From a virus (taxonomy: Duplodnaviria; Caudoviricetes), in the IMG/VR virus record IMGVR_UViG_3300021430_000310, positions 1,202-65,201 of that record: a DNA stretch of 64,000 bases, one strand, 5' to 3'. The translations under genes and the position numbers were made by a program. Position 1 is the first letter of the stretch. Each line of letters opens with the position of its first letter. Below the pieces are notes generated by a model. That model was not told the origin of the DNA. It saw nothing but the letters and a program-made list of their open reading frames with translations, and made no database searches. Below, piece by piece: positions 5,239 through 61,626 of the stretch.

Positions 5239-6180
5239 TCAACCAGCTTCTCTTATGTGCAGAATCTCATCATTTTCTTCACATAGGCTAGCTGGCACCC
5301 AACCCTTGGTCTTGACATAAATTTCATGTTCTGGTGTGATACAAACCTTCACACCATTTTCCATTTCAATCTCGTATAGGTCTCCTTCGTAATCTCTCTC
5401 ATAAGTCTCAGCCACAGTTGCAGACTCAACAATTGATAGATCTGTGTTATACGAAAGGACCTCTTGGCCTTGAGAGATTTGTTCAATAGGCATAACCCCT
5501 GTTGGTGTGCTGATCATAGTTCCAGGCACAAGGCAGAATGCACATTTGTACAGGCAGTAGTCAGATAGCTTGATGTCCACTAATTCTGGCACCGTGCTCT
5601 TCACATATTCAGGCGCATCAGGCAGAAAGCTCACACGCATCTTGGCACCTGAATGTGGATTGAACATGCTCCAATAGTCATGATCTCTGCGCACAACATT
5701 GTCATGGCCCCAATTGAAGGCATCAGTGCGATGATCTGTGTAGCTGTTGGCTGGGGGGTCCTGACCATCAGAGTTGTCGTTGCCACCCAGGATGATCACA
5801 TCATCACGCTTGACAAACTCATGCATGTGCTGCACCAGTTCAGGATGCTTGCGGAACATGGTGCCCAGGTTGCCCCACACACTCTGATGGTCCACACCGT
5901 AATCTGAAAAGTCATCAACTGAATATTCAGTTGATAGCAGACTGTTCACAGCATGCACAATCTCAGATTTCTCCATGTGTGCATCTTCCAGAGTCTGCAT
6001 GAGCTGGGTCACAAAGTAGGCACTCTTGCTGTCTGGATCAGCTAGTGTGAACTGTTCCCAATTGTAGCTGAAACGGTTGTATTCATCTGTGAATTCTCGT
6101 TGACCACGTGGGATCATCACAATGGAATGGCTGCTGCTGGAGTTGGTGGCGAAACCCACCCGCAGATTGTGAACTTTCAT
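5239..6180 (-). CDS. Radical SAM N-extein (with GFATNSSSSHS domain) fused to split-intein N-fragment
   Basis: ELVDIKLSDYCLYKCAF then CLVPGTMISTPTG..TPEH..GWV; stop after 98 intein residues. Confidence 0.92.
   Translation of the reverse strand: MKVHNLRVGFATNSSSSHSIVMIPRGQREFTDEYNRFSYNWEQFTLADPDSKSAYFVTQLMQTLEDAHMEKSEIVHAVNSLLSTEYSVDDFSDYGVDHQSVWGNLGTMFRKHPELVQHMHEFVKRDDVIILGGNDNSDGQDPPANSYTDHRTDAFNWGHDNVVRRDHDYWSMFNPHSGAKMRVSFLPDAPEYVKSTVPELVDIKLSDYCLYKCAFCLVPGTMISTPTGVMPIEQISQGQEVLSYNTDLSIVESATVAETYERDYEGDLYEIEMENGVKVCITPEHEIYVKTKGWVPASLCEENDEILHIREAG
5242..5535 (-). other. IntN of a naturally split intein (98 aa)
   Basis: C1 block A CLVPGT, block B TPEH, acidic C-terminus EENDE. Confidence 0.92.
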
Positions 6181-16131: not shown

Positions 16132-16941
16132 ATGATGAAGCTGGATCAAGCTCGTGAACAGGCCATGCGTGATCGCACCCAGCAGGTGCTGGATCTGGCT
16201 GAGCGGCTGTATGGCGTCAAGATCCAGCCCACCATCCGCTTTGACCTGCGTGGTAGGGTGGCTGGCTATGCGAGTTGCAAGTATTGCGCCATCACCCAGC
16301 AAAAGCAGTTCGGCCTGCGCTTCAACTGCGAGCTCATTCAGGGTGATCACTTTGAAGACATGATGAACAACACAATTCCGCATGAAATTGGCCATTTGAT
16401 CTGCTACGCCCGTCCTGAACTGGGCCGCAAGCATGATGCCGGTTGGCAGGCTGTGTGCCTCGCCCTGGGTGGTGATGGCAAGCGCACCCACAACTATGAT
16501 GTGGTGGTGAAGGGTCGCTGGGACTACCTCACGGACCTGGGCAACAAGGTGAGTGTCACCAAGCGTTATCATGCAGCCGTGCAGGCTGGGCTCACCCTGC
16601 GCTTCAAGCGGGGGCTGGGTGTGATCACCAAGGCCAGCCCCCATGCACCCAGTGGGCAACTGAAGGTCACCGCCAAGCCTGAGGGCACCATGGTGGTGCG
16701 CACCCAGCCTCCTGCGTCCAAGCCTGCTGCCAAGCCCACGATGGTCACAAAGGTGGGCAAGACTGTGGAAGTCAGCAAGACGGGTGAGCTCACGTGGGCT
16801 GAGAAGGTTCGGCAGCTGATCCGTGCTCACAAGCCGCAGGGTGTGAATGTGGACACTGTGATCCACTTGGCCATCCAGAATCTGGGCATGACTCGTGAAC
16901 GTGCTCGTAGCTGCGTTAAGGCACATTGGGAGAAGATTTAA
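16132..16941 (+). CDS. SprT-like zinc metalloprotease with basic linker and C-terminal helical module
   Basis: RGRVAG, IPHEIGHL, HDAGWQ; GC-rich. Confidence 0.85.
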   Translation: MMKLDQAREQAMRDRTQQVLDLAERLYGVKIQPTIRFDLRGRVAGYASCKYCAITQQKQFGLRFNCELIQGDHFEDMMNNTIPHEIGHLICYARPELGRKHDAGWQAVCLALGGDGKRTHNYDVVVKGRWDYLTDLGNKVSVTKRYHAAVQAGLTLRFKRGLGVITKASPHAPSGQLKVTAKPEGTMVVRTQPPASKPAAKPTMVTKVGKTVEVSKTGELTWAEKVRQLIRAHKPQGVNVDTVIHLAIQNLGMTRERARSCVKAHWEKI

Positions 16942-19454: not shown

Positions 19455-19492
19455 CCCTACCCAACACACAGAACACCCAAGGAGAGAGTGTG

Positions 19493-20296
19493 ATGTTTTT
19501 GAAATATCCTCGCACTCCTCATCTGGAGGGCAGCAGACTACAGCCGGGCGACCATGATCATGATCAGGTGAGCCTGAGCAGCCTCACACAAGGAGAGTTT
19601 GTGTGGGAAGAGAAGGTGGATGGTGCCAACTCAGGCATCAGCTTTGATGAACAGGGTGTTCTGCAACTACAGAGCAGAGGGCATGTGCTCACAGGTGGGG
19701 CCCGAGAAGCACAGTTCAATCTGTTCAAACAGTGGGCCACAGGCATGGAGGAAGACCTCTATATTGTGCTGGGTGAGCGCTATATCATGTATGGTGAATG
19801 GTGCTATGCTCGCCACAGTGTGTTTTATGATCTGCTGCCTCACTACTTCCTGGAATTTGATGTTTATGACAAACATACCCACAAGTGGCTGAGCACAGAT
19901 GTCAGACATCAACTGTTGGAGCCCTTGCAGGTGTGCCATGTGCCTGTGGTTTATCGTGGCCATGTGAAAACTCGCAAACACATGCAGTCTCTGATTCAGC
20001 CCAGTGCATTCAAGAGTGAAAACTGGGCTGAATCTCTGCGTGCTCAGGCTGTGAAGGCAGGGGTGGATCCTGCTCAGGCCTGGGCAGAAACAGAAAAGAC
20101 GCGCCTCATGGAGGGTCTGTATGTCAAGCAAGAACTCAACGGAGAAGTGATTGGCAGATACAAGTATGTGAGGTATGACTTTGTTCAAACCATTGTGGAA
20201 AGTGGCAGTCACTGGGCAGATCGTCCCATGATTGTGAACATGCTGGCTCCTGGTGCACAACTGTTTGGTGCTCCAGTGATCACACCCAGCATTTGA
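19493..20296 (+). CDS. ATP-dependent RNA ligase (nucleotidyltransferase superfamily)
   Basis: KYPRTPHL, EEKVDGAN (motif I Lys), YGEW, FLEFDVYD, EGLYVK, YKYVR. Confidence 0.88.
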   Translation: MFLKYPRTPHLEGSRLQPGDHDHDQVSLSSLTQGEFVWEEKVDGANSGISFDEQGVLQLQSRGHVLTGGAREAQFNLFKQWATGMEEDLYIVLGERYIMYGEWCYARHSVFYDLLPHYFLEFDVYDKHTHKWLSTDVRHQLLEPLQVCHVPVVYRGHVKTRKHMQSLIQPSAFKSENWAESLRAQAVKAGVDPAQAWAETEKTRLMEGLYVKQELNGEVIGRYKYVRYDFVQTIVESGSHWADRPMIVNMLAPGAQLFGAPVITPSI

Positions 20297-21403
20297 GTGC
20301 TGATCATGACCCACTCTTCCATCGCTCACACATTGGCGGCTGCTCAGCAGGGCGATTGGCACCGAGCTGCTGAGTGCATGCCAGAATCTGTGGCCATGCA
20401 ATCCTGCATGCAGGACCCAGTGTTCCATGCAGAAGGTGATGTGTGGACTCACACCCAAATGGTGTACAACCATCTGCCTCACAATGCTGATGTGAGCTTG
20501 CAAGCATGTGCTGTGTATCATGATGTGGCCAAACCCCAAACCCGCACAGAGGTGGTGCTGCCTGATAGGATTCAGATCAGCCATCCTCGTCACAGCAGTC
20601 TGGGAGCGCAACATTTCTGGCAACAGGCTCATGAGCAAAACTGGGGCACCATCCATCAACGCTTGTGTGTTTACTGGTTGATCAGATATCATCAAAAGAT
20701 CTTTCATGTGTGGAACAGTGAGCACATGCTGCATGATCTGCTGCGCATGGCTGCTGATGTGGACCTCACACAGTTGTTGCAGTTTGCGCTGGCTGACACC
20801 CAGGGCAGGATTTGTGTGCACAACCCACAAACTGAACAGGACCTCATGCTGCTGCACACACTCTTGGATGAAACTCAGGCAAATGCACCCTGGTCCAGCT
20901 CTGCTGCCCGCAAGTTCTATTTTGAAAAGTCAGGCAGACAGCCCGAGTATGTGCCGCAGCCCCCTCAGGGCAGCAGAGTGTGGATCATGAGCGGACTACC
21001 TGGTAGTGGCAAGGATACCTGGATTGCTGCCAATCTGCCTCATGTGGCTGAGGTCAGCATGGACAGGATCAGATCTCAGTTGAAGGTTGAGCCCACGGAC
21101 AATCAGGGACAGGTGGTGCAGGCTGCACAAGAGGCAGCCCGAGTACTGTTGCGTGCTCGCAAAGATTTTGTGTGGAACAACACCTGTGTGACTGAACAAA
21201 CTCGCAGCCGAATCATTCAGCTGTGCAGAGACTATGATGCTCATGTCACAGTGGTCAACATGATCACCCCATTCTCAACCAGTCAATCTCGCAACAGAGC
21301 CAGAAAGCATCCAGTGCCTGACTCAGTTGTGCAACGCATGCTGCACAAATGGCAGCCCACCAGCATGACTGAAGCTCATGAAATCCACTGGGTGGAAATT
21401 TAA
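20297..21403 (+). CDS. HD phosphoesterase fused to P-loop 5' kinase (end-healing enzyme)
   Basis: HAEGDVWTHT, YHDVAK, LAD; C-terminal GLPGSGKDTW, WNNT. Confidence 0.85.
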   Translation: MLIMTHSSIAHTLAAAQQGDWHRAAECMPESVAMQSCMQDPVFHAEGDVWTHTQMVYNHLPHNADVSLQACAVYHDVAKPQTRTEVVLPDRIQISHPRHSSLGAQHFWQQAHEQNWGTIHQRLCVYWLIRYHQKIFHVWNSEHMLHDLLRMAADVDLTQLLQFALADTQGRICVHNPQTEQDLMLLHTLLDETQANAPWSSSAARKFYFEKSGRQPEYVPQPPQGSRVWIMSGLPGSGKDTWIAANLPHVAEVSMDRIRSQLKVEPTDNQGQVVQAAQEAARVLLRARKDFVWNNTCVTEQTRSRIIQLCRDYDAHVTVVNMITPFSTSQSRNRARKHPVPDSVVQRMLHKWQPTSMTEAHEIHWVEI

Positions 21404-21425
21404 ACCAGATCAGAAAGGAAGTTAT

Positions 21426-21854
21426 ATGACAAATACAATTCCCCGGATTGGAGTGGGTGTGATTGTTCACACTCCTCTGGGATACCCCATGCTGAGGCGA
21501 CAGGGCAGTCATGGTGCAGGCACCTGGTGCTGGCCAGGAGGTCACCTTGAACTGGGTGAGAGTGTGCTAGCCTGTGCTCTCCGAGAATGTGCAGAAGAGA
21601 CTGGTATAGCTCTTACCCGGGCTGAGATCCTGCCCTGGTTCACCGAAGACCGCTTTGAAGGTGGTCTTCACTACATCACTCTGTATGTGAGGGGAGAAAG
21701 TGGTGAATGTGCTCGCAATCTGGAACCCCACAAGTGTGATGCACTGCTGAATGTGGATCTGGATGTGGAATTCATTGATGAATACACAGGTGGTGAGCTG
21801 TTCAGCGGTGTGGCTCAAAGCTGGCGTTTGTTTAGACAACTCCAACAAAAATAA
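21426..21854 (+). CDS. Nudix hydrolase
   Basis: PGGHLELGES...ALRECAEETG. Confidence 0.9.
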   Translation: MTNTIPRIGVGVIVHTPLGYPMLRRQGSHGAGTWCWPGGHLELGESVLACALRECAEETGIALTRAEILPWFTEDRFEGGLHYITLYVRGESGECARNLEPHKCDALLNVDLDVEFIDEYTGGELFSGVAQSWRLFRQLQQK

Positions 21855-25947: not shown

Positions 25948-26269
25948 CACGTTCTGGTATGAACCAGGTCACATACTCCTGTGTTGGGATCAGTTCAGAT
26001 CCCCTCCTGCTGGTCCTGCTGGACGTTACTATTGGGAGAATGCAACACTTATACTCACCCGAGTGAACCCTTGGGCACCTAGTCATTATCAAAATTCAGA
26101 TCCTGCTATACTGTTTGTTAACAAGATGAGAGGAACCTGGCTAAATGAATATCAGCCAGATCTGGATCAAATATTTGATGAATATCAGATTGTGAACAAC
26201 GGATGGCGAGGTGTACTCAGAGTGAGTGAATGTGACCTCGCCTACTGGCTGTTACAATGTGGATCATAG
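25925..26269 (+). CDS. Hypothetical protein
   Basis: Last gene of the plus-strand early run; ends DLAYWLLQC. Confidence 0.6.
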   Translation: MITQLNHNTFWYEPGHILLCWDQFRSPPAGPAGRYYWENATLILTRVNPWAPSHYQNSDPAILFVNKMRGTWLNEYQPDLDQIFDEYQIVNNGWRGVLRVSECDLAYWLLQCGS

Positions 26270-26716
26270 CTCTGAATCGTTCATTCCCGCAATTCTCAAG
26301 CGCACGATGTTTCCCAAGCTGTAGCTTTTCACATCAAAGCCTTTCATGACGCCCAGGTAACGATTGCGCACCAGGGCCACTTCATTTATCACACTCAGCA
26401 TGTCCACAATGTCGGCCTCTCCATCTATATACTTCTCAATGGAGCGGTCAGATAGTTCTCTGTTGTAGCGTTCCAGATACCTGCGATAATGATCTGAACG
26501 CTGTTTGTCATACTTCACGTTCAGATATTTGAGCACACTCTCCAGATCCTGCAACTGATTGAATCTGTGGCTCACTTGCCCAGGCAGGTCTTGATTCTGT
26601 TTTTCCAGACTGCCCAAGATGCGAGTTTCTTTTTGAGCCTGCTCCAACTCACTATTATAGTAGTCAATCATGTCAGGCAGCACACTCATATCACTCCTAA
26701 CACGCACAAACCACAT
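26264..26716 (-). CDS. uvsY: Recombination mediator UvsY
   Basis: YLERYNRELSDRSIEKYIDGE, RNRYLGVMKG.D.KSY.LGNIVRLRIAGM. Confidence 0.88.
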   Translation of the reverse strand: MWFVRVRSDMSVLPDMIDYYNSELEQAQKETRILGSLEKQNQDLPGQVSHRFNQLQDLESVLKYLNVKYDKQRSDHYRRYLERYNRELSDRSIEKYIDGEADIVDMLSVINEVALVRNRYLGVMKGFDVKSYSLGNIVRLRIAGMNDSEL

Positions 26717-26728
26717 GCACTTAACTCC

Positions 26729-26947
26729 TTAATAATCTTCCTCATCGAATTCCTCTTCGAACAATTCCTCTAGAGCGGTGTCCAGATCATCATCCACACC
26801 ATGCAGCTCTGCAATATCTTCAATCTCAATATCGTTGTCCACAAACACACTCAAGAAAGAGTTTGCGCACTCTTCTCTCTTGTTTGCAGGCACAAAGTCT
26901 TTCACACTCTCCCAAAGATCCATGACAGTCTTGGCATCAATTTCCAT
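26729..26947 (-). CDS. Small acidic conserved-looking protein
   Basis: AGGAG SD; TAAATA at 26974-26979. Confidence 0.75.
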   Translation of the reverse strand: MEIDAKTVMDLWESVKDFVPANKREECANSFLSVFVDNDIEIEDIAELHGVDDDLDTALEELFEEEFDEEDY

Positions 26948-27208: not shown

Positions 27209-28048
27209 TCATTGTATGAATGTCCCACAACTTGCGGCCACATCTGTGCCCACTCTGCTAATGATCTTGCAGGGCATATATTCAGAGATAAACATGTGGA
27301 TCTCATCCAGACGGGTTGACTCTGTGCCCTGTTCAGATGAGTATGGATTGTATCGCACAATGTTGTATTCTGCTCTGAGTCCACGAGCCTGGATGGCTGC
27401 AATCTGAGCCCTAACATCGTCAAGGGAATCATTCTCACCTGCGATGAATGCACCATGAAACTTGATGATCTTCTTGCTCACATACTGATACTCATGCAAC
27501 AGATCCAGAGCCTGATCCACATTCATGGCAGCAGGCAGCCACTTGCGTCTGAAGTCAGGATTCACGCTGTACATGGAGTAGTAGATGGTGGGAGTGATCA
27601 CAGGGAATGCCTGCACCAGACTCTTCCTCATGGTCACAGGCATGATGGTGCTCATGTTAAACTTGGGAATCAGGCCATATTCCCTGCTCTTCTGTGCCAG
27701 GGCACCAAACAGCTCTGTGCTGGTTTCTGTCACAGTGGGATTTGCAAGCGGTTCTCCACGTGCCATCCAATTAATATGGACCAAAGGCGCAGGAGTATCC
27801 TGTGCATAGTGATGCAGGATGGTGTCATACTGCTGCACAAAATCTGTGAGGTCAGCATTCTGGAACTGTGTTTGGCGAGTCACAGTCAGATGACACATGC
27901 GACAGCCCCTGTTGCAGCCAGTCTGGCTGCTCAGGTAAGCCACAAAGTAGCGACTCTCTCTCCTCACATAGCGGCTCTCCAGGAAGCCCACCAATTGGGC
28001 TTCCACAAAGTTCACGCTAGCATCCATCTGGCTACGGAGCACTTGCAT
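27209..28048 (-). CDS. RlmN/Cfr-like radical SAM protein
   Basis: SSQTGCNRGCRMC, MARGEP, IVRYNP, DVAASCG; start reassigned to MQVLRS just after the uvsX stop. Confidence 0.85.
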   Translation of the reverse strand: MQVLRSQMDASVNFVEAQLVGFLESRYVRRESRYFVAYLSSQTGCNRGCRMCHLTVTRQTQFQNADLTDFVQQYDTILHHYAQDTPAPLVHINWMARGEPLANPTVTETSTELFGALAQKSREYGLIPKFNMSTIMPVTMRKSLVQAFPVITPTIYYSMYSVNPDFRRKWLPAAMNVDQALDLLHEYQYVSKKIIKFHGAFIAGENDSLDDVRAQIAAIQARGLRAEYNIVRYNPYSSEQGTESTRLDEIHMFISEYMPCKIISRVGTDVAASCGTFIQ

Positions 28049-28052
28049 CGCG

Positions 28053-29156
28053 TTATGCATGTTCATCAGATGCTGAGTCTGAGTTTGTCTCAGATCCAGT
28101 GTGTTTGAGATCATGCTTCATGATTTGAGTATGAAACTCAGACATGATCTTCTCCAAACAGTCATCTTCATTGCGATCCCAAGCTTTTTCAAACTTCTTA
28201 ATCTGTACACCATCCAGTGCTGTATATGACCATTTGTTACCTTCTTTGATCACCAATCCCTTTTGTTGGAACAAATCAAACAGGCCGCTGTAGGGGTCCA
28301 TGCCACGATCATAGGGGATTTTGACCTCCACCTGAGTGAATGGCTGGTTATAGCGAGTTTTCATCACCTTGCATTGAGCACGGATGCCTTTGACATCTGT
28401 GGTCTTGTTGCCCAATTCATCTTCTTTTAGCTTGAGTTTTCTCATGGCCAACACAATGGAGCTTGCGTAGATGGGGCCCTGTCCACCGCTTACGACGTCA
28501 TCAGGATTAAACATGTCCTGGCTTGCATAAGAGTGGTTGGTGCACACTAGTCCCACATCATATTCACCAAACATGTTCACACAGTTGCGCACAAGTGCAG
28601 CCAGTGCCTTGGGCTTGCGACCCATGTCACCCTTAAGGTCACCAGCTTCAAATTGATTGATGTCTGTGGGAGTCAACAGCATGCCCAAGCTGTCAATCAC
28701 AAACAACACACGTGGACGATCTGCTTCATCCATACCACCATAACGAGTCTTGTAGTCCTTCATGAAGTCAGAAATCAGTTTGGCCACATCATCAATCATG
28801 GCCATGTTCACCTTGAGCAGAGCTTCCTCACTTGTGTCCACATCCAGAGCCTTTAGCCACTTCTCATCCAGAGCATTCTCTGTGTCAATCAGCACCACAA
28901 ACACATCCTTCTTCTGTGCATTGGCTGTGATGTTACCTGATGCCAAAAAGGATTTTCCCGATCCGCTCTGTCCGGCCAGAATGGATACCTTGCCCAGAGG
29001 AATACCACCATCCTTGAAGCGGCCACTGATTGCGTAGTTGAGTGCGTAATTACCAGTGCTGATCCACACTTTGGGATCTCGGAAGCCCACACTAAGGCCT
29101 GGAATATTTTTAGTAATGTCTTTTCTGAATTTGGATAAGTCAAGACTCTTGGTCAT
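28053..29156 (-). CDS. uvsX: RecA-like recombinase UvsX
   Basis: AGQSGSGKS, IDTENALD, IDSLGML, VCTNH, SGGQG, KTRY. Confidence 0.93.
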   Translation of the reverse strand: MTKSLDLSKFRKDITKNIPGLSVGFRDPKVWISTGNYALNYAISGRFKDGGIPLGKVSILAGQSGSGKSFLASGNITANAQKKDVFVVLIDTENALDEKWLKALDVDTSEEALLKVNMAMIDDVAKLISDFMKDYKTRYGGMDEADRPRVLFVIDSLGMLLTPTDINQFEAGDLKGDMGRKPKALAALVRNCVNMFGEYDVGLVCTNHSYASQDMFNPDDVVSGGQGPIYASSIVLAMRKLKLKEDELGNKTTDVKGIRAQCKVMKTRYNQPFTQVEVKIPYDRGMDPYSGLFDLFQQKGLVIKEGNKWSYTALDGVQIKKFEKAWDRNEDDCLEKIMSEFHTQIMKHDLKHTGSETNSDSASDEHA

Positions 29157-38421: not shown

Positions 38422-41400
38422 TTAGGTGGGCAGTGGATCACCTGTGTTCAATATACGCACTGGTATGTAGATGAACTCCACAGCCTTGGTGGGCTTGATG
38501 GCTATGTCAATCCACAACTCATTGCGGTCAATTCTGTCTGGTGTGTTATTACTTTCATCACACAGCACCGCAAAGTCATACACAGCTCTGAGTGCCACCA
38601 GGTCACCCATAAAGCTTTCAAAGGTTCTCTGCACAGCATCACGTGTGTATTGATCATTGGGCTCGAACAGGAAGGGCTTGGCCAGGTTGTCCAACTGGTA
38701 GTTGAGGTAGTTGACCAATCTGCTCACATTCACTCTGTTCAGTGCACTTTCCACTGGGCTCAGAGTCTTTTGGCCATATATGACCAATCCTCTGCCTGGA
38801 ATGAATCTGATGGGGTTCACATCATTCTCATACAGTACATCGCTCTGTCCCTGGCTCAGCTGCACAGGCACATATTCATTCTCACCATTCAGGTAACCCA
38901 CGCTAGTGAGCACGCTGATCAAACCTCTGTTCAATCCTGCTGGTGCAAACCATGGGTAGCTGACTTGGTCGTTGAATGCAAAGGTTCTCAGCACTGCCAC
39001 GCTGGGCGGCACAAACACTTCGGAACCATCCAGGTTGGTGGCCAAGCCCCAAGGATAGTAGACACCTGCATATCTGGAGCGAGTGATCAGCCCTTCTTCT
39101 CCATTTGTGGCTGCGTTGTTCTGGTTGAGTGCCCAAGTCTGTATGCTGGTGCCATCTGGCATCAGTCTGGCAGGAGGATCAATCAGCACAAATGCTACAT
39201 CCTTCTTATCGGTGTTAAGGGTCACCAGTTCGTCAATGAGTTCTGCATAACCAGGCGCTGCCATGAGGTTGAAGAAGTTGCCTTCTGCTCTGATGTCCTG
39301 ATTGCTCACTATAGCAGCCTGCATGGCTTGCACCACCATTCTGCGCTGAGCCTTGCGACCCATGTAGGGAGCACCTGTTGTGGACACTCCACTGGCAGTA
39401 ACCCATCTGTCTCTCCATGTGCCAGTGGTCAGGTAATTGGGTGTCCACATCTTCACATTGTTGGTGCTGTATCTCATGTTGAACACCAACATGCCAAATG
39501 GATAGCTGAGTGCACTGGGTGCGTCAGGATCCACATAGTCACTCACCAACATGGATGCAATTGCTTCACTGCCTGTGGATGCACCATTGTCATTGGGCCG
39601 GACATCTGCAAACACCACACCCTGGCTGGTGGTCTGATCAGTCACATCAATCAATGTCCATAGTGCGTTCAAGCTGTCATAGCGATACATCTTGGGGTAA
39701 TTCTCCAAGTCGCTGGTGTCTATCCACAAGTCTTGGTCCACTAAGGGGGTAAAACCATCACTTTGTGTGGAAGGCTCTGTGGCGCTGAGTATCACACCAT
39801 TAGGATCAGTGGCAGGGTACATGTTTCTGTAACCCATCCACTGTGTGCCGTCACTCACCATGATGTCCACTCTGAGATCCTGGTTGAACCACAGAGCACC
39901 AGCAGGTGGTTGAGCACGAGGTGGTGTTGCACTCTGTGCATAAGGCACAGGTTGATTGTTGACTGTATAACTGTGTGCAGCCACCCAAGCGGTTCCTGTC
40001 CATGCCTTCACAACCAGGGTGGCTGTGCGAGGAGTGGTCACGTTGCTGTTAAATTGCACATACAGGCTGCCTGGTGTTCTCTGGCTGCTATATGCAGTGT
40101 TGGCACTAGCATCATCTTCATACAAGGGCGCTGCTCTCAGCTGCCAAGTGTCGGTTCCTGCGTTATATCTCTTCATGCTCCATGAGGAGCCTCTGTTACC
40201 TGGAGTGGTGTTAATCCATATGTTGCCAGCAGTCAGTTGTGACACAGCCTTGGGTTGTGGCTGCTGTGCTGTATAACCCTGATACACCAACACGTTGCCC
40301 AACGTGGCTGCGCATGGTATGCCTGTGAGCATGGTGAATGGTGCAACTGCTGTAGCATTCACTCCATTGCGCAAAGTAAAGAATGTGCCCTGCTTGCTTC
40401 TGATTCGGAATAGGGTTTCTGCACCCACTGACACCAAGCTGGCCTCAATGTAGGGGTTGATGGTGGAGTTGTTGTTGATGGCATCCACAAACTCTGTGGG
40501 CGTATAACCTGAACCAGGAGTGTCAATTGTGGCTGACACACCTCCCACTGTGATGGTCAACTTGGTGTTTTCCACAAATGCAGGAGCTCCCAAAGTGGTC
40601 ACATCCACTGTGCCTGTGACATCGCCGTAAAATGTCTGTGTTTGGCTGATGCCCACACCGTCAAACAATCCGCCCACAGTGTCAATCAGTTGCACAGTGG
40701 TGCCTGCATAGTTGGTGATGCGCAGGTAGGCGTCAGGCCCTTGAGTGAATATGCTGGCCACTGCTGGCACATTGTTGTTTGCAAATTCTTCATTAAGCTG
40801 GTTAACCAAACCTGAGAGTGTGGTGGCGCCATTTGTAAATGTGAATGTGGTTGCGCCAATAGTGATTTCACTTTCATGACCTGCCACAATGGTGGGTGTT
40901 CTGTCTGTGCCTGTGACCACAGTGGGTGTGGCTTCTGACCAACCTGCACCAGGCGCTTCCACATCTGTGCTGCCAATCAGGAACCATCTCACTTGTGTGC
41001 TGTTGGCAGTTGTGATGAGGATCTTTTCAAACATTTGAACTTGTGTGACCAAGTCACCATTGGCATTTCTGCTCTTGTATGCATTTACTGCAACACTTCC
41101 CACAGATCCCAAGCTGAGCACAGGTGTGATCTGATTGATGGGTGTAGCAGATAGGCCCAGTGCAGTCAGCACACCTGCGGTGCTGCCTGTGAAGCTGAGA
41201 CCAGCTTCCAGATCTACATTAGCGCATACAAGACGCAAGTTGTAGACTGTAGCAGCTTGAGTGATGGGTGTCACACCTGTTTCATACGCAAACACTCTCT
41301 CTGCAACTTGAGCACTTAGCACTTTAACTGCGCTATTGGTGCTTGTGGCCACGGCAGAATTGATCTTCTGCACCACATCCAGCAGGCTGTCTGTGCCCAC

Positions 41401-42030
41401 AATGCCCACTTGCAAGTTGAAGGGCAAGATTACCAATGTGCCTGAGGCCAACAAATCTGCATTGGGGTCCAGGATGGGAGTAGCAGTTACTCCCTGCACA
41501 TGAAGTTCCAGTTGGGCTGCGTTGTCAATTACGATGGGCTGAATAGCGCCCCAGGCCAGGCTGGAGTTGATGTTGCCGTTTGATCTGAACACACCCCAGG
41601 AAGTGTTAGCAGTATCCAACCACAAGGAACCATTACGTGGCTCACCTGCAGGAGGCAGGCTGGAACTCTCCAGAGCAGCCAAATCCACATCTGCTCTCAT
41701 CACAAATGTTCTGTTGGCCAGACCCAGGTATTGGTAAGCTGCATACAAACCCCACTCATTGAGCTCACTACCATATTGAGGAGTGCCTGCCTGAGTGGTG
41801 AATCTGGGGTTACCAAATGTTTGAATTAGTTCTCTTTGGCTGGTGATGTTATACAGTTTGCCTGCATTTGCCTTCACTGTGCCAGGTGCTATGGAAGTGG
41901 TGTTGCCAGGTTGCCCTTTGTCTTGGGCAGTGGCCAGCATGATGAAGGGCACAGTGCCAGCACCGGCACCGGCATAAAAACTTTCATCAATTATTTGAAC
42001 TTGAACCCCAGGGCTCACAAGATTTGCCAT
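38422..42030 (-). CDS. gp18: Tail sheath protein (1202 aa)
   Basis: LVSPGVQVQIIDES, WFAPAG.NRG, YGQKT, RVNVSRL, RNELWIDIAIKP.KAVEFIYIP; TAAATA at 42064-42069. Confidence 0.95.
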   Translation of the reverse strand: MANLVSPGVQVQIIDESFYAGAGAGTVPFIMLATAQDKGQPGNTTSIAPGTVKANAGKLYNITSQRELIQTFGNPRFTTQAGTPQYGSELNEWGLYAAYQYLGLANRTFVMRADVDLAALESSSLPPAGEPRNGSLWLDTANTSWGVFRSNGNINSSLAWGAIQPIVIDNAAQLELHVQGVTATPILDPNADLLASGTLVILPFNLQVGIVGTDSLLDVVQKINSAVATSTNSAVKVLSAQVAERVFAYETGVTPITQAATVYNLRLVCANVDLEAGLSFTGSTAGVLTALGLSATPINQITPVLSLGSVGSVAVNAYKSRNANGDLVTQVQMFEKILITTANSTQVRWFLIGSTDVEAPGAGWSEATPTVVTGTDRTPTIVAGHESEITIGATTFTFTNGATTLSGLVNQLNEEFANNNVPAVASIFTQGPDAYLRITNYAGTTVQLIDTVGGLFDGVGISQTQTFYGDVTGTVDVTTLGAPAFVENTKLTITVGGVSATIDTPGSGYTPTEFVDAINNNSTINPYIEASLVSVGAETLFRIRSKQGTFFTLRNGVNATAVAPFTMLTGIPCAATLGNVLVYQGYTAQQPQPKAVSQLTAGNIWINTTPGNRGSSWSMKRYNAGTDTWQLRAAPLYEDDASANTAYSSQRTPGSLYVQFNSNVTTPRTATLVVKAWTGTAWVAAHSYTVNNQPVPYAQSATPPRAQPPAGALWFNQDLRVDIMVSDGTQWMGYRNMYPATDPNGVILSATEPSTQSDGFTPLVDQDLWIDTSDLENYPKMYRYDSLNALWTLIDVTDQTTSQGVVFADVRPNDNGASTGSEAIASMLVSDYVDPDAPSALSYPFGMLVFNMRYSTNNVKMWTPNYLTTGTWRDRWVTASGVSTTGAPYMGRKAQRRMVVQAMQAAIVSNQDIRAEGNFFNLMAAPGYAELIDELVTLNTDKKDVAFVLIDPPARLMPDGTSIQTWALNQNNAATNGEEGLITRSRYAGVYYPWGLATNLDGSEVFVPPSVAVLRTFAFNDQVSYPWFAPAGLNRGLISVLTSVGYLNGENEYVPVQLSQGQSDVLYENDVNPIRFIPGRGLVIYGQKTLSPVESALNRVNVSRLVNYLNYQLDNLAKPFLFEPNDQYTRDAVQRTFESFMGDLVALRAVYDFAVLCDESNNTPDRIDRNELWIDIAIKPTKAVEFIYIPVRILNTGDPLPT

Positions 42031-58716: not shown

Positions 58717-60336
58717 ATGAGTCAATTGGCACGCATCAAACATTTAATAGAGACTCACAAGATTGATGGTGTAGCCACCAGAGTCAAACATGATCCTATC
58801 ATGCTCACAGAGGTGAATGATTGGGTAGCATCTGCTCACTGCGGTCTGCTCAGCGAGAAGATCTATTGTTATGTGAATCAACTTGATCAACCCCCCACCT
58901 GTGCATGTGGTCAACCAGTGAGATTTGTGAGCATCACTAAGGGATACAGGGAGTTCTGTTCAAAGTCATGTGTGCATGCCAGACAAGTTGCAACAGAACG
59001 GCGAGTGGCAGTGCAGAGAGCGCGAGGTGGTGTGGGCTTAGCCAATCCTGCAGCCAAAGCTAAGGCGCAACAAACACTGCAAGATACTCATGGTGTATCA
59101 AATGCCTTTTGTTTACCCAAAGTGGATGCACATAGACGGTTTAACAATCCCATGAAGGATACCAAAGTGCTCGAGTCAATCAGACAGAACTGTCTACAAA
59201 CTCACAATGTGGATTGGCATAGTAAGCGACCAGAAGTTGTGGCTAAACGGGAACAAACAAACTTAATTAAATATGGCGTGGTGAATGCTAGTCAACAGCA
59301 TTATGATGAGACCACTATCTCCATGTTGACTGATGCAGCCCGGTTAAAAAACATGTTCACAACTCACAGCGTGCAAGGCATGGCTCTGAATTTAGGAGTG
59401 TGTGAGACCACAATTCTCAAATATCTCAACATACATGGTATCCGTACGCCCAATCAGATAGCTGCTGAGATTCAGATAGCTGAATGGTTATCAAGTGTGG
59501 GCTTTACTGACTTTGAGAAGACCCGCACAGTGTTAACGAACAAACAAGAGCTTGATCTATATAGTCCTAGTCAGAATCTAGCTATCGAATATTGCGGTTT
59601 ATACTGGCACAGTCAGGCTCACAAACATCGCAACTATCATGTGGACAAATATATCCAGTGCAAGGTTCAAAGTATCCGATTAATCACCATCTTTGAGGAT
59701 GAGTGGTTGAACAAGTCAGAAGTTGTTAAAAACAGACTACGCCAGGTCCTAGGTATTAATCATAAGGGTGCTGGGGCCAGACAACTTCAAGTGCGAGAGA
59801 TCAATCAGCATGCAGCTTCTCAGTTTCTGGACATGCATCACATTAGTGGCTACACCAAGGCTAGTGTGTGCGTGGGTGCATTTGATCAGGATCAGAATTT
59901 GGTGGCTGTGATGACATTCAGTCAGGGTCGCAAGTTCATGAAGCCCAAACTGGATTGGCAATGGGAGATGGTGCGGTTTAGCACAAATGGCACGCATTAT
60001 GCGGGTGTGGCATCTCGTCTGTTCAATCACTTTGTTAAAACATATGAACCCACAAGTGTGATCAGTTATGCCGATCTCAGATGGGGTCAGGGACTATATC
60101 TAAATCATTTAGGGTTCAGTCGGTTTGAAGATACACCTGCCAATTACTGGTATTTCAGTCTTAAAAACGCCGACTTCAAAAGATACCACAGGTTCACATT
60201 CAACAAACAGGCATTGATCCGGAAGTATCCAGAATTTAACGGACCTGACGCAACAGAATATACCATAGCTAAACAGGCAGGGCTAGAGCGCATATGGGAC
60301 TGTGGGAACGCCAAATGGCTCTGGTATTCCACCTAA
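58717..60336 (+). mobile_element. Free-standing homing endonuclease-like gene (Hef/Vsr-like nuclease plus C-terminal GNAT/Mom-like domain)
   Basis: Zn motif CACG..FCS..C; ELDLY..LAIEYCGLYWHS..IFEDEW; LVAVMTF..WE.VRF..GVASRLF..SYAD..IWDCG. Confidence 0.75.
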
Positions 60337-60420: not shown

Positions 60421-61626
60421 TTAGAGAAATTTCAGGTTAGCAGTATTCACAGCCACGCCTGCCAGGTAGTCAGCAGCGTTACCCAGTGAGCTGGATGTGT
60501 TGCTGAGTTCCAGGTAGCCATATCTGGTCATGAAGCTCACAACTGGCTCGAAGGTGGCTGGATCAATGATCACGCCTGAGCTTGTGAGTGGCACATATGG
60601 GCAGTAATACGCAGCCGCATCAATTTCGCCTGGACCCTTGTAACCAACCAACACAGGTGTGTCGTCAGCTGCATATTGGTCCACGTAAACGCGAACTGAG
60701 TTGTTGAGCACGCCCACAAATTTGGTGTTTGTGGGAGCCTCAAATGTGCCTTCAGTTGTGCGAGCGAAAGCTGAAGTTGTTGCGCTCTGCAGAATGGTGA
60801 GGGCAGTTGGTGAAACCACAACCCAGTTACCAGCACCACGACGGGTTCTGGCAGCGATCAGGTTGGCACCACGGTTGATCAACACTGCCAGAGCAGCATG
60901 CTCGTCACCCACGAAAGTGGCTGTACCGCTAACGGCGCCCTGGTCGTATGTGAGTGTGACACCAGCCAGTGTTCTCAGGCTGTTCAGGATTTCCTGGTCG
61001 ATTTCAGCGGTGATCTCTTGTGCGAGAGCAGCCATGATTTCGGCCTCAATGTCGATACCCTGCTGAGCCTGTGCATCCTGTGCAGCCTCAAATGTCCAGC
61101 GAGCTGAGAGCTTGCGGCTCTTGGCTTCCACTGTTTCCTTGAGGATCTGGATGTTCAGTCTCTTACCTGCTGTGCCTTCCAGGGTGGTTGTGTCAGCGCC
61201 ACGTGGGTTGGCTGAGTTACCATTGCCTGAATAGAAGCGGGCGATATCAAATGGGCTGAGTGCCTCGCTACCAGCCACAACTGGTGCAGGTGCACCGAAT
61301 GTGTCTGCATAACGCACACGCAGAGTGTGGATCTGACCCACAGGGCCTGTCATGGGCTGCACGCCAATGATCTCGTTAGCGATCACAGTGGGCATAACAC
61401 GACGGATAACTGGCAGGATCACCTTGTTGAGGGTGGCCACGTTACCTGAGCTTGATGCACCAGGAGTTGCATTTTCCAACAGCATGCCGCCGTTGAATCT
61501 GTTATGCAGGTCTCTCTTGGTGTTCTCCAGAACCACATCCATGACCTTTTTGCGGTTGCCGGTGAGGCCGTCGCAAAGTGCTTGCTTGGTGAGGTTCCAA
61601 TTGGCTTCGAAAAGATTGCCTTTCAT
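60421..61626 (-). CDS. gp23: Major capsid protein
   Basis: VIRRVMPTVIANEIIGVQPMTGPVGQI, KSRKLSARWT.E.AQD, EITAEID.EI, YCPYVP, MTRYG. Confidence 0.97.
   Translation of the reverse strand: MKGNLFEANWNLTKQALCDGLTGNRKKVMDVVLENTKRDLHNRFNGGMLLENATPGASSSGNVATLNKVILPVIRRVMPTVIANEIIGVQPMTGPVGQIHTLRVRYADTFGAPAPVVAGSEALSPFDIARFYSGNGNSANPRGADTTTLEGTAGKRLNIQILKETVEAKSRKLSARWTFEAAQDAQAQQGIDIEAEIMAALAQEITAEIDQEILNSLRTLAGVTLTYDQGAVSGTATFVGDEHAALAVLINRGANLIAARTRRGAGNWVVVSPTALTILQSATTSAFARTTEGTFEAPTNTKFVGVLNNSVRVYVDQYAADDTPVLVGYKGPGEIDAAAYYCPYVPLTSSGVIIDPATFEPVVSFMTRYGYLELSNTSSSLGNAADYLAGVAVNTANLKFL

Follow-up and report, generated by a model that had tools for sequence, protein, structure and literature searches.

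An invariant tyrosine at the site of the RlmN resolving cysteine in an essentially virus-restricted family of RlmN/Cfr-like radical SAM enzymes

RlmN is the synthase of m2A2503 in 23S rRNA and m2A37 in tRNA, and Cfr is the 23S rRNA m8A2503 methyltransferase. Whether the second cysteine of the class A methylases serves as a disulfide partner or as a general base has long been argued. Class A methylases are defined by their use of two conserved cysteines, and RlmN C118, like Cfr C105, is indispensable for resolving the covalent enzyme–RNA adduct (PMC9692996). A general-base role, with C118 directed at C2, has also been described, and M176 helps to stabilise the Cys355 radical (PMC9692996). In E. 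coli RlmN, turnover stops when C118 is changed, and RlmN C118 and Cfr C105 variants stay cross-linked to RNA (PMC9692996). Here we describe a phage relative of these enzymes in which the position of C118 is occupied by tyrosine. A literature search turned up no publication about RlmN-like enzymes of phages or of the Tyr type, and a survey of jumbo phages mentions neither radical SAM enzymes nor RlmN (PMC7824862); the family appears to be undescribed in the literature that was searched.

The gene lies in a window of 64,000 nucleotides, the whole stretch of DNA analysed here, taken from a 65-kb viral contig with a CheckV completeness of 17%. We infer that the source phage is a jumbo myovirus with an estimated genome of about 380 kb. 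The window encodes a tail tube and an unusually long tail sheath protein of 1202 aa (38422–42030, minus strand); the sheath profile covers residues 667–1197 only, and the N-terminal half is an extension outside it. A 539-aa homing/HNH endonuclease (58717–60336, plus strand; phrog_3339, E 1e-103) adjoins the major head protein gene (60421–61626). The gene and its motifs are as follows.

27209..28048, minus strand: Tyr-type RlmN/Cfr-like radical SAM enzyme, 279 aa (ORF, homologue alignment, PHROG 27142 and AF2 model)
27209..28114, minus strand: full open ORF, 301 aa from the first in-frame ATG at 28114
27935..27937, minus strand: Tyr codon TAC (Y38 in 279 aa, Y60 in 301 aa), at the position of RlmN C118 and Cfr C105
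27893..27916, minus strand: CxxxCxxC radical SAM [4Fe-4S] motif, C45/C49/C52, then H-L-T
27749..27766, minus strand: MARGEP from M95, counterpart of RlmN M176-GMGEP, with Met kept and Gly-Met changed to Ala-Arg
27227..27229, minus strand: Cys codon, C274 (C296 in 301 aa), in the DVAASCG loop, counterpart of the RlmN methyl-carrier C355

The second in-frame methionine (M23 of the 301-aa ORF, at 28048) coincides with the homologue start in a 20-sequence alignment of the window protein and 19 homologues (alignment A1), which upholds the gene boundaries proposed in an earlier sequence-only reading of this DNA. The longer start at ATG 28114 was rejected: its 22 extra residues have no homologue support and a pLDDT below 50 in the AF2 model. 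Read from the sequence in 279-aa numbering, the N-terminal motif is Y38-LSSQTG-C45-NRG-C49-RM-C52, and the protein has five cysteines in total, namely the three cluster ligands, the carrier cysteine and one other. PHROG 27142 gives a full-length match (E 1e-91; protein residues 26–300, profile positions 9–299 of 300), although its name, 'Fe-S-cluster redox domain-containing', has no tested function behind it. A scan for promoters and terminators around the gene returned sites no more numerous than in shuffled sequence, and the family's median pI of 7.0 gave no hint for or against the binding of nucleic acid.

Cfr and RlmN are the nearest relatives of this protein by both sequence and predicted fold, clearly above other radical SAM enzymes, and the match is far beyond chance. 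The NCBIfam Cfr and RlmN profiles match the window protein at E values of about 1e-14 (2e-14) and about 50–54 bits. The best sequence match is Cfr 9P0P, with E 1e-12 for the single sequence (phmmer against solved structures) and 3e-17 for the family profile; in the phmmer alignment, the tyrosine is paired with the Cys of 'SFCISSQCGC', and C274 with that of 'AACG'. Alignment of the family profile to E. coli K-12 RlmN with hhalign (probability 96.7) pairs the tyrosine with C118, MARGEP with MGMGEP and C274 with C355, and the spacing is identical, as RlmN C118 and the window tyrosine each lie 7 positions ahead of the first cluster cysteine. An hmmsearch alignment to the chain of the RlmN C118A mutant is shifted by one residue and leaves a gap opposite the tyrosine, which we read as an artefact because the mutant chain carries Ala there. 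The residue mapping of the sequence-only reading, that is, a kept methyl-carrier cysteine, a tyrosine at the C118 position and a change of MGMGEP to MARGEP, thus held when aligned with RlmN and Cfr.

The predicted structure agrees with the sequence comparison and has the RlmN-type fold, a radical SAM core with a beta extension and a C-terminal loop. The AF2 model has a pLDDT of 84, and a Foldseek search with it returned RlmN as the closest structure (E 3e-12, TM 0.70). VIA scored RlmN at Z 24–25.5, Cfr at 18.4 and the best unrelated radical SAM enzyme at 16.6; the match to RlmN 4PL2 reached Z 25 over 257 residues at 2.6 A, and the RlmN entries 5HR6 and 5HR7 were among the top structural matches. 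What is missing is the N-terminal helical domain, which in RlmN and Cfr precedes the beta extension: the first residue of the protein corresponds to about RlmN residue 64, and the alignments cover RlmN 59–360 (hhalign) and profile positions 69–341 of TIGR00048. Scores also fall far below the curated cut-offs of the named families, with 50.5 bits against 290 for TIGR00048 (RlmN) and, for the two Cfr profiles, 53.2 against 550 for TIGR04432 and 53.7 against 530 for NF000424. Given these scores, the missing second cysteine and the missing N-terminal domain, RlmN, Cfr and 23S rRNA A2503 methyltransferase are all inappropriate annotations for the protein. The transferred names '23S rRNA (adenine2503-C2)-methyltransferase', 'RlmN' and 'Fe-S-cluster redox domain' are unsupported, and such annotations are no evidence for rRNA methylation or Cfr-like antibiotic resistance.

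To gauge how firmly the tyrosine is held, we counted residues in an alignment of 270 family members reaching down to about 38% identity. The C118 site is Tyr in 263/263 non-gap rows, which answers a question that the sequence-only reading had posed about phage homologues. The carrier-loop cysteine is likewise invariant (269/269), as are the three cluster cysteines, and the carrier motif D-[IV]-x-A-[AS]-C-G is held in common with RlmN and Cfr. Within MARGEP, M is kept in 268 of the 270 members, A in 253, R in 265, G in all 270 and E in 261. Across 88 loci the tyrosine is encoded by TAT (52) and TAC (36), and the carrier cysteine at the same loci by TGT (45) and TGC (42); because both residues are kept through synonymous codon change, both are held by selection. 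Alignment A1 contains seven invariant tyrosines in all (Y49, Y56, Y60, Y178, Y182, Y209 and Y255, in 301-aa numbering).

A different cysteine might have taken over from C118, and we looked for one. The only other cysteine of the window protein (C282 in 301-aa numbering) is Cys in just 97/270, and a Cys one residue ahead of the tyrosine is present in 43/270; both were rejected as substitutes. Among the 270 relatives no non-cluster cysteine besides the carrier is conserved, so the refutation that the sequence-only reading had proposed for itself, another cysteine in place of C118, leaves the exchange of cysteine for tyrosine standing.

Family members are numerous: 1782 proteins matched at E<=1e-3 in one search, and a representative library yielded 309 clusters (50% identity) at E<=1e-30, a size that rules out a decayed gene. 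The family is also essentially restricted to viruses, mostly jumbo phages. Named phage matches are all to large phages, among them Phabio (gp444), 201phi2-1 (gp434), Psa21, D6, RVTF4 and Viktualia of Pseudomonas, CcrColossus (gp283) and CcrPW of Caulobacter, and phages of Brevundimonas. Contigs of 230–465 kb carry many of 80 viral loci, and the nearest clusters in a protein atlas are 75–89% viral. Among prokaryotes, 185,579 species represented by one genome each gave 8 matches, all on metagenome-assembled and mostly short contigs, and these 8 included no informative cellular operon.

Two more distant viral RlmN-like genes differ from the family at the C118 site.

L095:3878-4804: RlmN-like, Klebsiella phage 05F01 gene_104, with Val at the C118 position and Cys at the third residue after it
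L096:3911-4906: RlmN-like, Tunturiibacter phage Tunturi_5 gp170, with Cys kept at the C118 position

With Cys in Tunturi_5 and Val in 05F01, tyrosine at this site is specific to the family of the window protein. The Cys-type gene of Tunturi_5 lies near SbcD and DnaB, and the Val-type gene of 05F01 lies between an ADP-ribosylation gene and an anaerobic ribonucleotide reductase gene. We also considered the His that follows the cluster motif as a partner linked to the tyrosine and rejected it, as it is present in both the Cys-type and the Val-type viral relatives. Domain fusions were sought as hints to a target: N-terminally extended relatives are without any Pfam domain, and a search for longer relatives returned only two proteins, one of them with HNH endonuclease domains, which was uninformative. 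That predicted protein (P0271, 491 aa, metagenome) combines a family member with the HNH domains PF01844 and PF14279, and may be an inserted or fused homing endonuclease or a gene-calling artefact.

We tentatively favour the view that the window protein is functional and belongs to a sister family of RlmN and Cfr, large and essentially limited to viruses, whose members would be class-A-like C-methylases: the tyrosine would act as the finishing residue, the enzyme would turn over and the substrate would be RNA, most likely tRNA. The methyl-Cys chemistry seems to be retained, because the exact carrier-loop motif of RlmN and Cfr and the counterpart of M176 are conserved, and we read the tyrosine as catalytic, because lost function would not fix one residue across hundreds of diverged lineages. 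By homology alone, we infer a route in which the enzyme would methylate its own loop cysteine from SAM, after which cleavage of a second SAM would give a Cys-CH2 radical, and this would add to a nucleobase at an sp2 carbon. The invariant tyrosine, standing in for Cys118 as a tyrosinate base or as a proton or hydrogen relay, would then release the enzyme–substrate adduct, so that the enzyme turns over and does not stay trapped. We know of no precedent for a tyrosine in the job of Cys118. Less firmly, the substrate may be an adenine-type RNA base, probably in phage or host tRNA; because the N-terminal domain is missing, it would be recognised otherwise than by RlmN.

The sequence-only reading had offered several outcomes, among them a covalent trap for host RNA, the use of another base and a different substrate. 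The last two fit the data better than the trap does, given a tyrosine that is invariant and encoded by both of its codons. In well over a thousand viral proteins, the exchange of cysteine for tyrosine amounts to a natural experiment on the role of the second cysteine; if Tyr-type enzymes turn over, the thiol is dispensable for product release. Widespread in jumbo phages, the family may make an unrecognised RNA or DNA modification that serves in phage–host conflict.

The genomic neighbourhood bears on the target. When the ORFs lying up to 8 kb from the gene were all clustered for 79 viral loci, no partner gene proved to be shared across clades. The principal neighbours, in the window and by clade, are listed below.

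28053..29156, minus strand: UvsX-like recombinase, directly upstream (phrog_97, E 8e-70)
26264..26716, minus strand: UvsY-like recombination mediator, two small ORFs downstream (phrog_231, E 2e-12)
Window, opposite strand, 6–7 kb off: RNA ligase, Pnk-like kinase and Nudix
Window's clade (18 loci of 79): uvsX upstream, uvsY downstream
L043-type (9 loci): SbcD-SbcC directly upstream
L028-type (9 loci): NAD-dependent DNA ligase upstream
Chimallivirus clade: tRNA array ending about 0.5–1.5 kb upstream (several members), RtcB 0.8–1.1 kb downstream
CcrColossus: CCA-adding enzyme 1.7 kb downstream
L026 and L036: gene inside arrays of 21–22 tRNA genes
Two clades: Pnk-like kinase within 6 kb

In the window, the ATG of the radical SAM gene follows the uvsX stop codon after a gap of 4 nt, and farther upstream of uvsX, on the same strand, lie genes for a gp32-type single-strand DNA-binding protein, a virion protein and the large terminase. 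The position behind uvsX had been taken as a hint of a DNA-related role. The adjacency is real, and uvsY is near, but it is confined to the window's clade; a DNA-related role gains from SbcCD and the NAD-dependent DNA ligase upstream in two more clades and loses from the other clades, in which the gene sits beside RtcB, the CCA-adding enzyme or tRNA arrays.

Other genes of the neighbourhood are recorded here in their own right. Between the radical SAM gene and uvsY lies a 72-aa ORF (26729–26947, minus strand) whose C-terminal tail (…EELFEEEFDEEDY) is very acidic; it is conserved at 14 loci within the window's clade and has no family match. A SprT-like metalloprotease with a HEIGH motif (PF10263) is encoded at 16132–16941 (plus strand) of the window, as well as at L010:11628-12383 and 11 other loci; the homologues lie 2–4 kb downstream on the opposite strand at 12 loci, in the uvsX clade only. 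SprT/Spartan-type proteases cut DNA–protein cross-links. The RNA ligase (PF09414, E 1.5e-35), the 368-aa P-loop polynucleotide-kinase-like protein and the Nudix hydrolase of the window form a cassette at 19490–21854 (plus strand) that looks like a heal-and-seal RNA repair module. Phages use such modules against anticodon nucleases.

To see whether the radical SAM gene lies nearer to tRNA genes than chance would place it, we ranked its distance to the nearest tRNA gene against all positions of each genome, using 15 whole records. tRNAs are encoded in 21/23 whole carrier records, with up to 65 genes, and are absent from G001 and G021. The distance was shorter than random, with a median rank of 0.18 over the 15 genomes and a Fisher combined p of 0.035 after related genomes were collapsed to 11 lineages, and in several genomes the radical SAM gene is far from any tRNA; the proximity is a weak signal that may merely reflect shared placement among non-structural genes. 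Overall, repair genes for DNA and for RNA turn up near the gene at about the same frequency; our modest preference for RNA comes from the characterised relatives, every one of which has an RNA substrate. In a 453-kb phage contig (L014 and L024), the radical SAM gene has two tandem tRNA genes (5886–5960 and 5966–6041) 2 kb upstream of it, with the anticodon CUA and called tRNA-Pyl by ARAGORN; they may be amber suppressors and a sign of stop-codon recoding.

A further-reaching version of these ideas, which we regard as speculative and somewhat unlikely, is that the tyrosine supports a new finishing chemistry that leaves an uncatalogued C-linked mark, or even a deliberate methylene cross-link, on a target that RlmN never touches. 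Candidate targets would be tRNA anticodon loops, where the mark could blunt host anticodon nucleases alongside the RNA-repair genes of the phage, or single-stranded DNA in recombination intermediates.

Among the rival explanations, the one that survives best, though we think it unlikely, is that the enzyme acts on DNA or on a deoxynucleotide. While phage DNA is recombined or repaired, it would C-methylate, or modify in some other way, a base in a single-stranded or damaged stretch; alternatively, it would modify a nucleotide precursor. Upstream genes on the same strand and nearly abutting the gene point this way in three clades (UvsX at 18 loci, SbcD-SbcC at 9 and the NAD-dependent DNA ligase at 9), as do the absence of the RNA-recognising N-terminal domain of RlmN and the proximity of the distant Cys-type relative in Tunturi_5 to SbcD and DnaB. 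However, RNA is the substrate of all characterised relatives, in other clades the gene lies with RtcB, the CCA-adding enzyme or tRNA arrays, and no partner gene is kept across clades. Radical SAM methylation consumes two SAM per methyl and turns over slowly, so marking the whole of a jumbo genome, about 380 kb by estimate, is improbable.

Spore photoproduct lyase, which repairs DNA by radical SAM chemistry with a hydrogen relay of Cys and Tyr, provides the model for a second alternative, which we hold to be distinctly doubtful. The RlmN scaffold would here have been re-used by an enzyme other than a methylase, with the loop cysteine and the tyrosine forming a hydrogen-atom or radical relay, for example for the direct reversal of a nucleic-acid lesion. 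Such a relay would suit the seven invariant tyrosines of alignment A1, the DNA- or RNA-repair neighbours of several clades and the loss of the second cysteine that defines class A. It is harder to reconcile with the conservation of the RlmN/Cfr carrier-Cys loop motif and of the M176 counterpart; moreover, no lesion-specific partner was identified, and spore photoproduct lyase is not among the structural matches listed, which is weak evidence against the idea.

Least probable, and very unlikely, is the suicide trap of the sequence-only reading, a single-turnover enzyme stuck covalently on host rRNA or tRNA to sabotage translation, which is unsupported as a natural RNA trap: the carrier cysteine is indeed kept while the resolving cysteine is absent, RlmN C118 and Cfr C105 variants do remain cross-linked to RNA (PMC9692996), and the SprT-like metalloprotease 2–4 kb from the gene in the window's clade (about 10 kb in the window) is a lead, though a lead only and limited to that one clade, but mere loss of C118 would not fix a single residue in every non-gap row and keep it through TAT/TAC changes, the phage would be damaging a translation apparatus that it needs itself and often supplies with tRNAs of its own, and a stoichiometric trap would require as many enzyme molecules as there are targets.

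Returning to the reading that we favour, of an enzyme that turns over and is finished by tyrosine, we compared the family with known systems. Its likeness to spore photoproduct lyase, an enzyme briefly mentioned in PMC9692996, would lie in radical SAM chemistry on nucleic acid with one Cys and Tyr residues near SAM; the Foldseek and VIA matches listed, from which the lyase is absent, give no sign of a specific sequence or fold similarity beyond the radical SAM core. Tunturi_5 gp170 and 05F01 gene_104 are, like the window protein, short and stand-alone (21–25% identity) and have in common with the Tyr family a C-H-[LT]-T after the third cluster cysteine and a C-terminal [AS]-C-G-M-F. Cfr (TIGR04432 and NF000424; PDB 9P0P) has the same two motifs, at the cluster and at the carrier cysteine; the phage protein differs from it in having Tyr for C105, and shows no sign here of action on A2503 or of an antibiotic effect. 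RlmN (E. coli YfgB; PDB 3RF9, 3RFA, 4PL1, 5HR6 and 5HR7) has the same fold as that predicted for the phage protein and shares with it the CxxxCxxC motif, the equivalent of M176, the GEP motif and the D-x-x-A-[AS]-C-G carrier loop. In contrast to RlmN, to which its identity is about 18%, the phage protein has Tyr in place of Cys118, lacks the N-terminal helical domain of about the first 60 residues and belongs to a family essentially confined to viruses.
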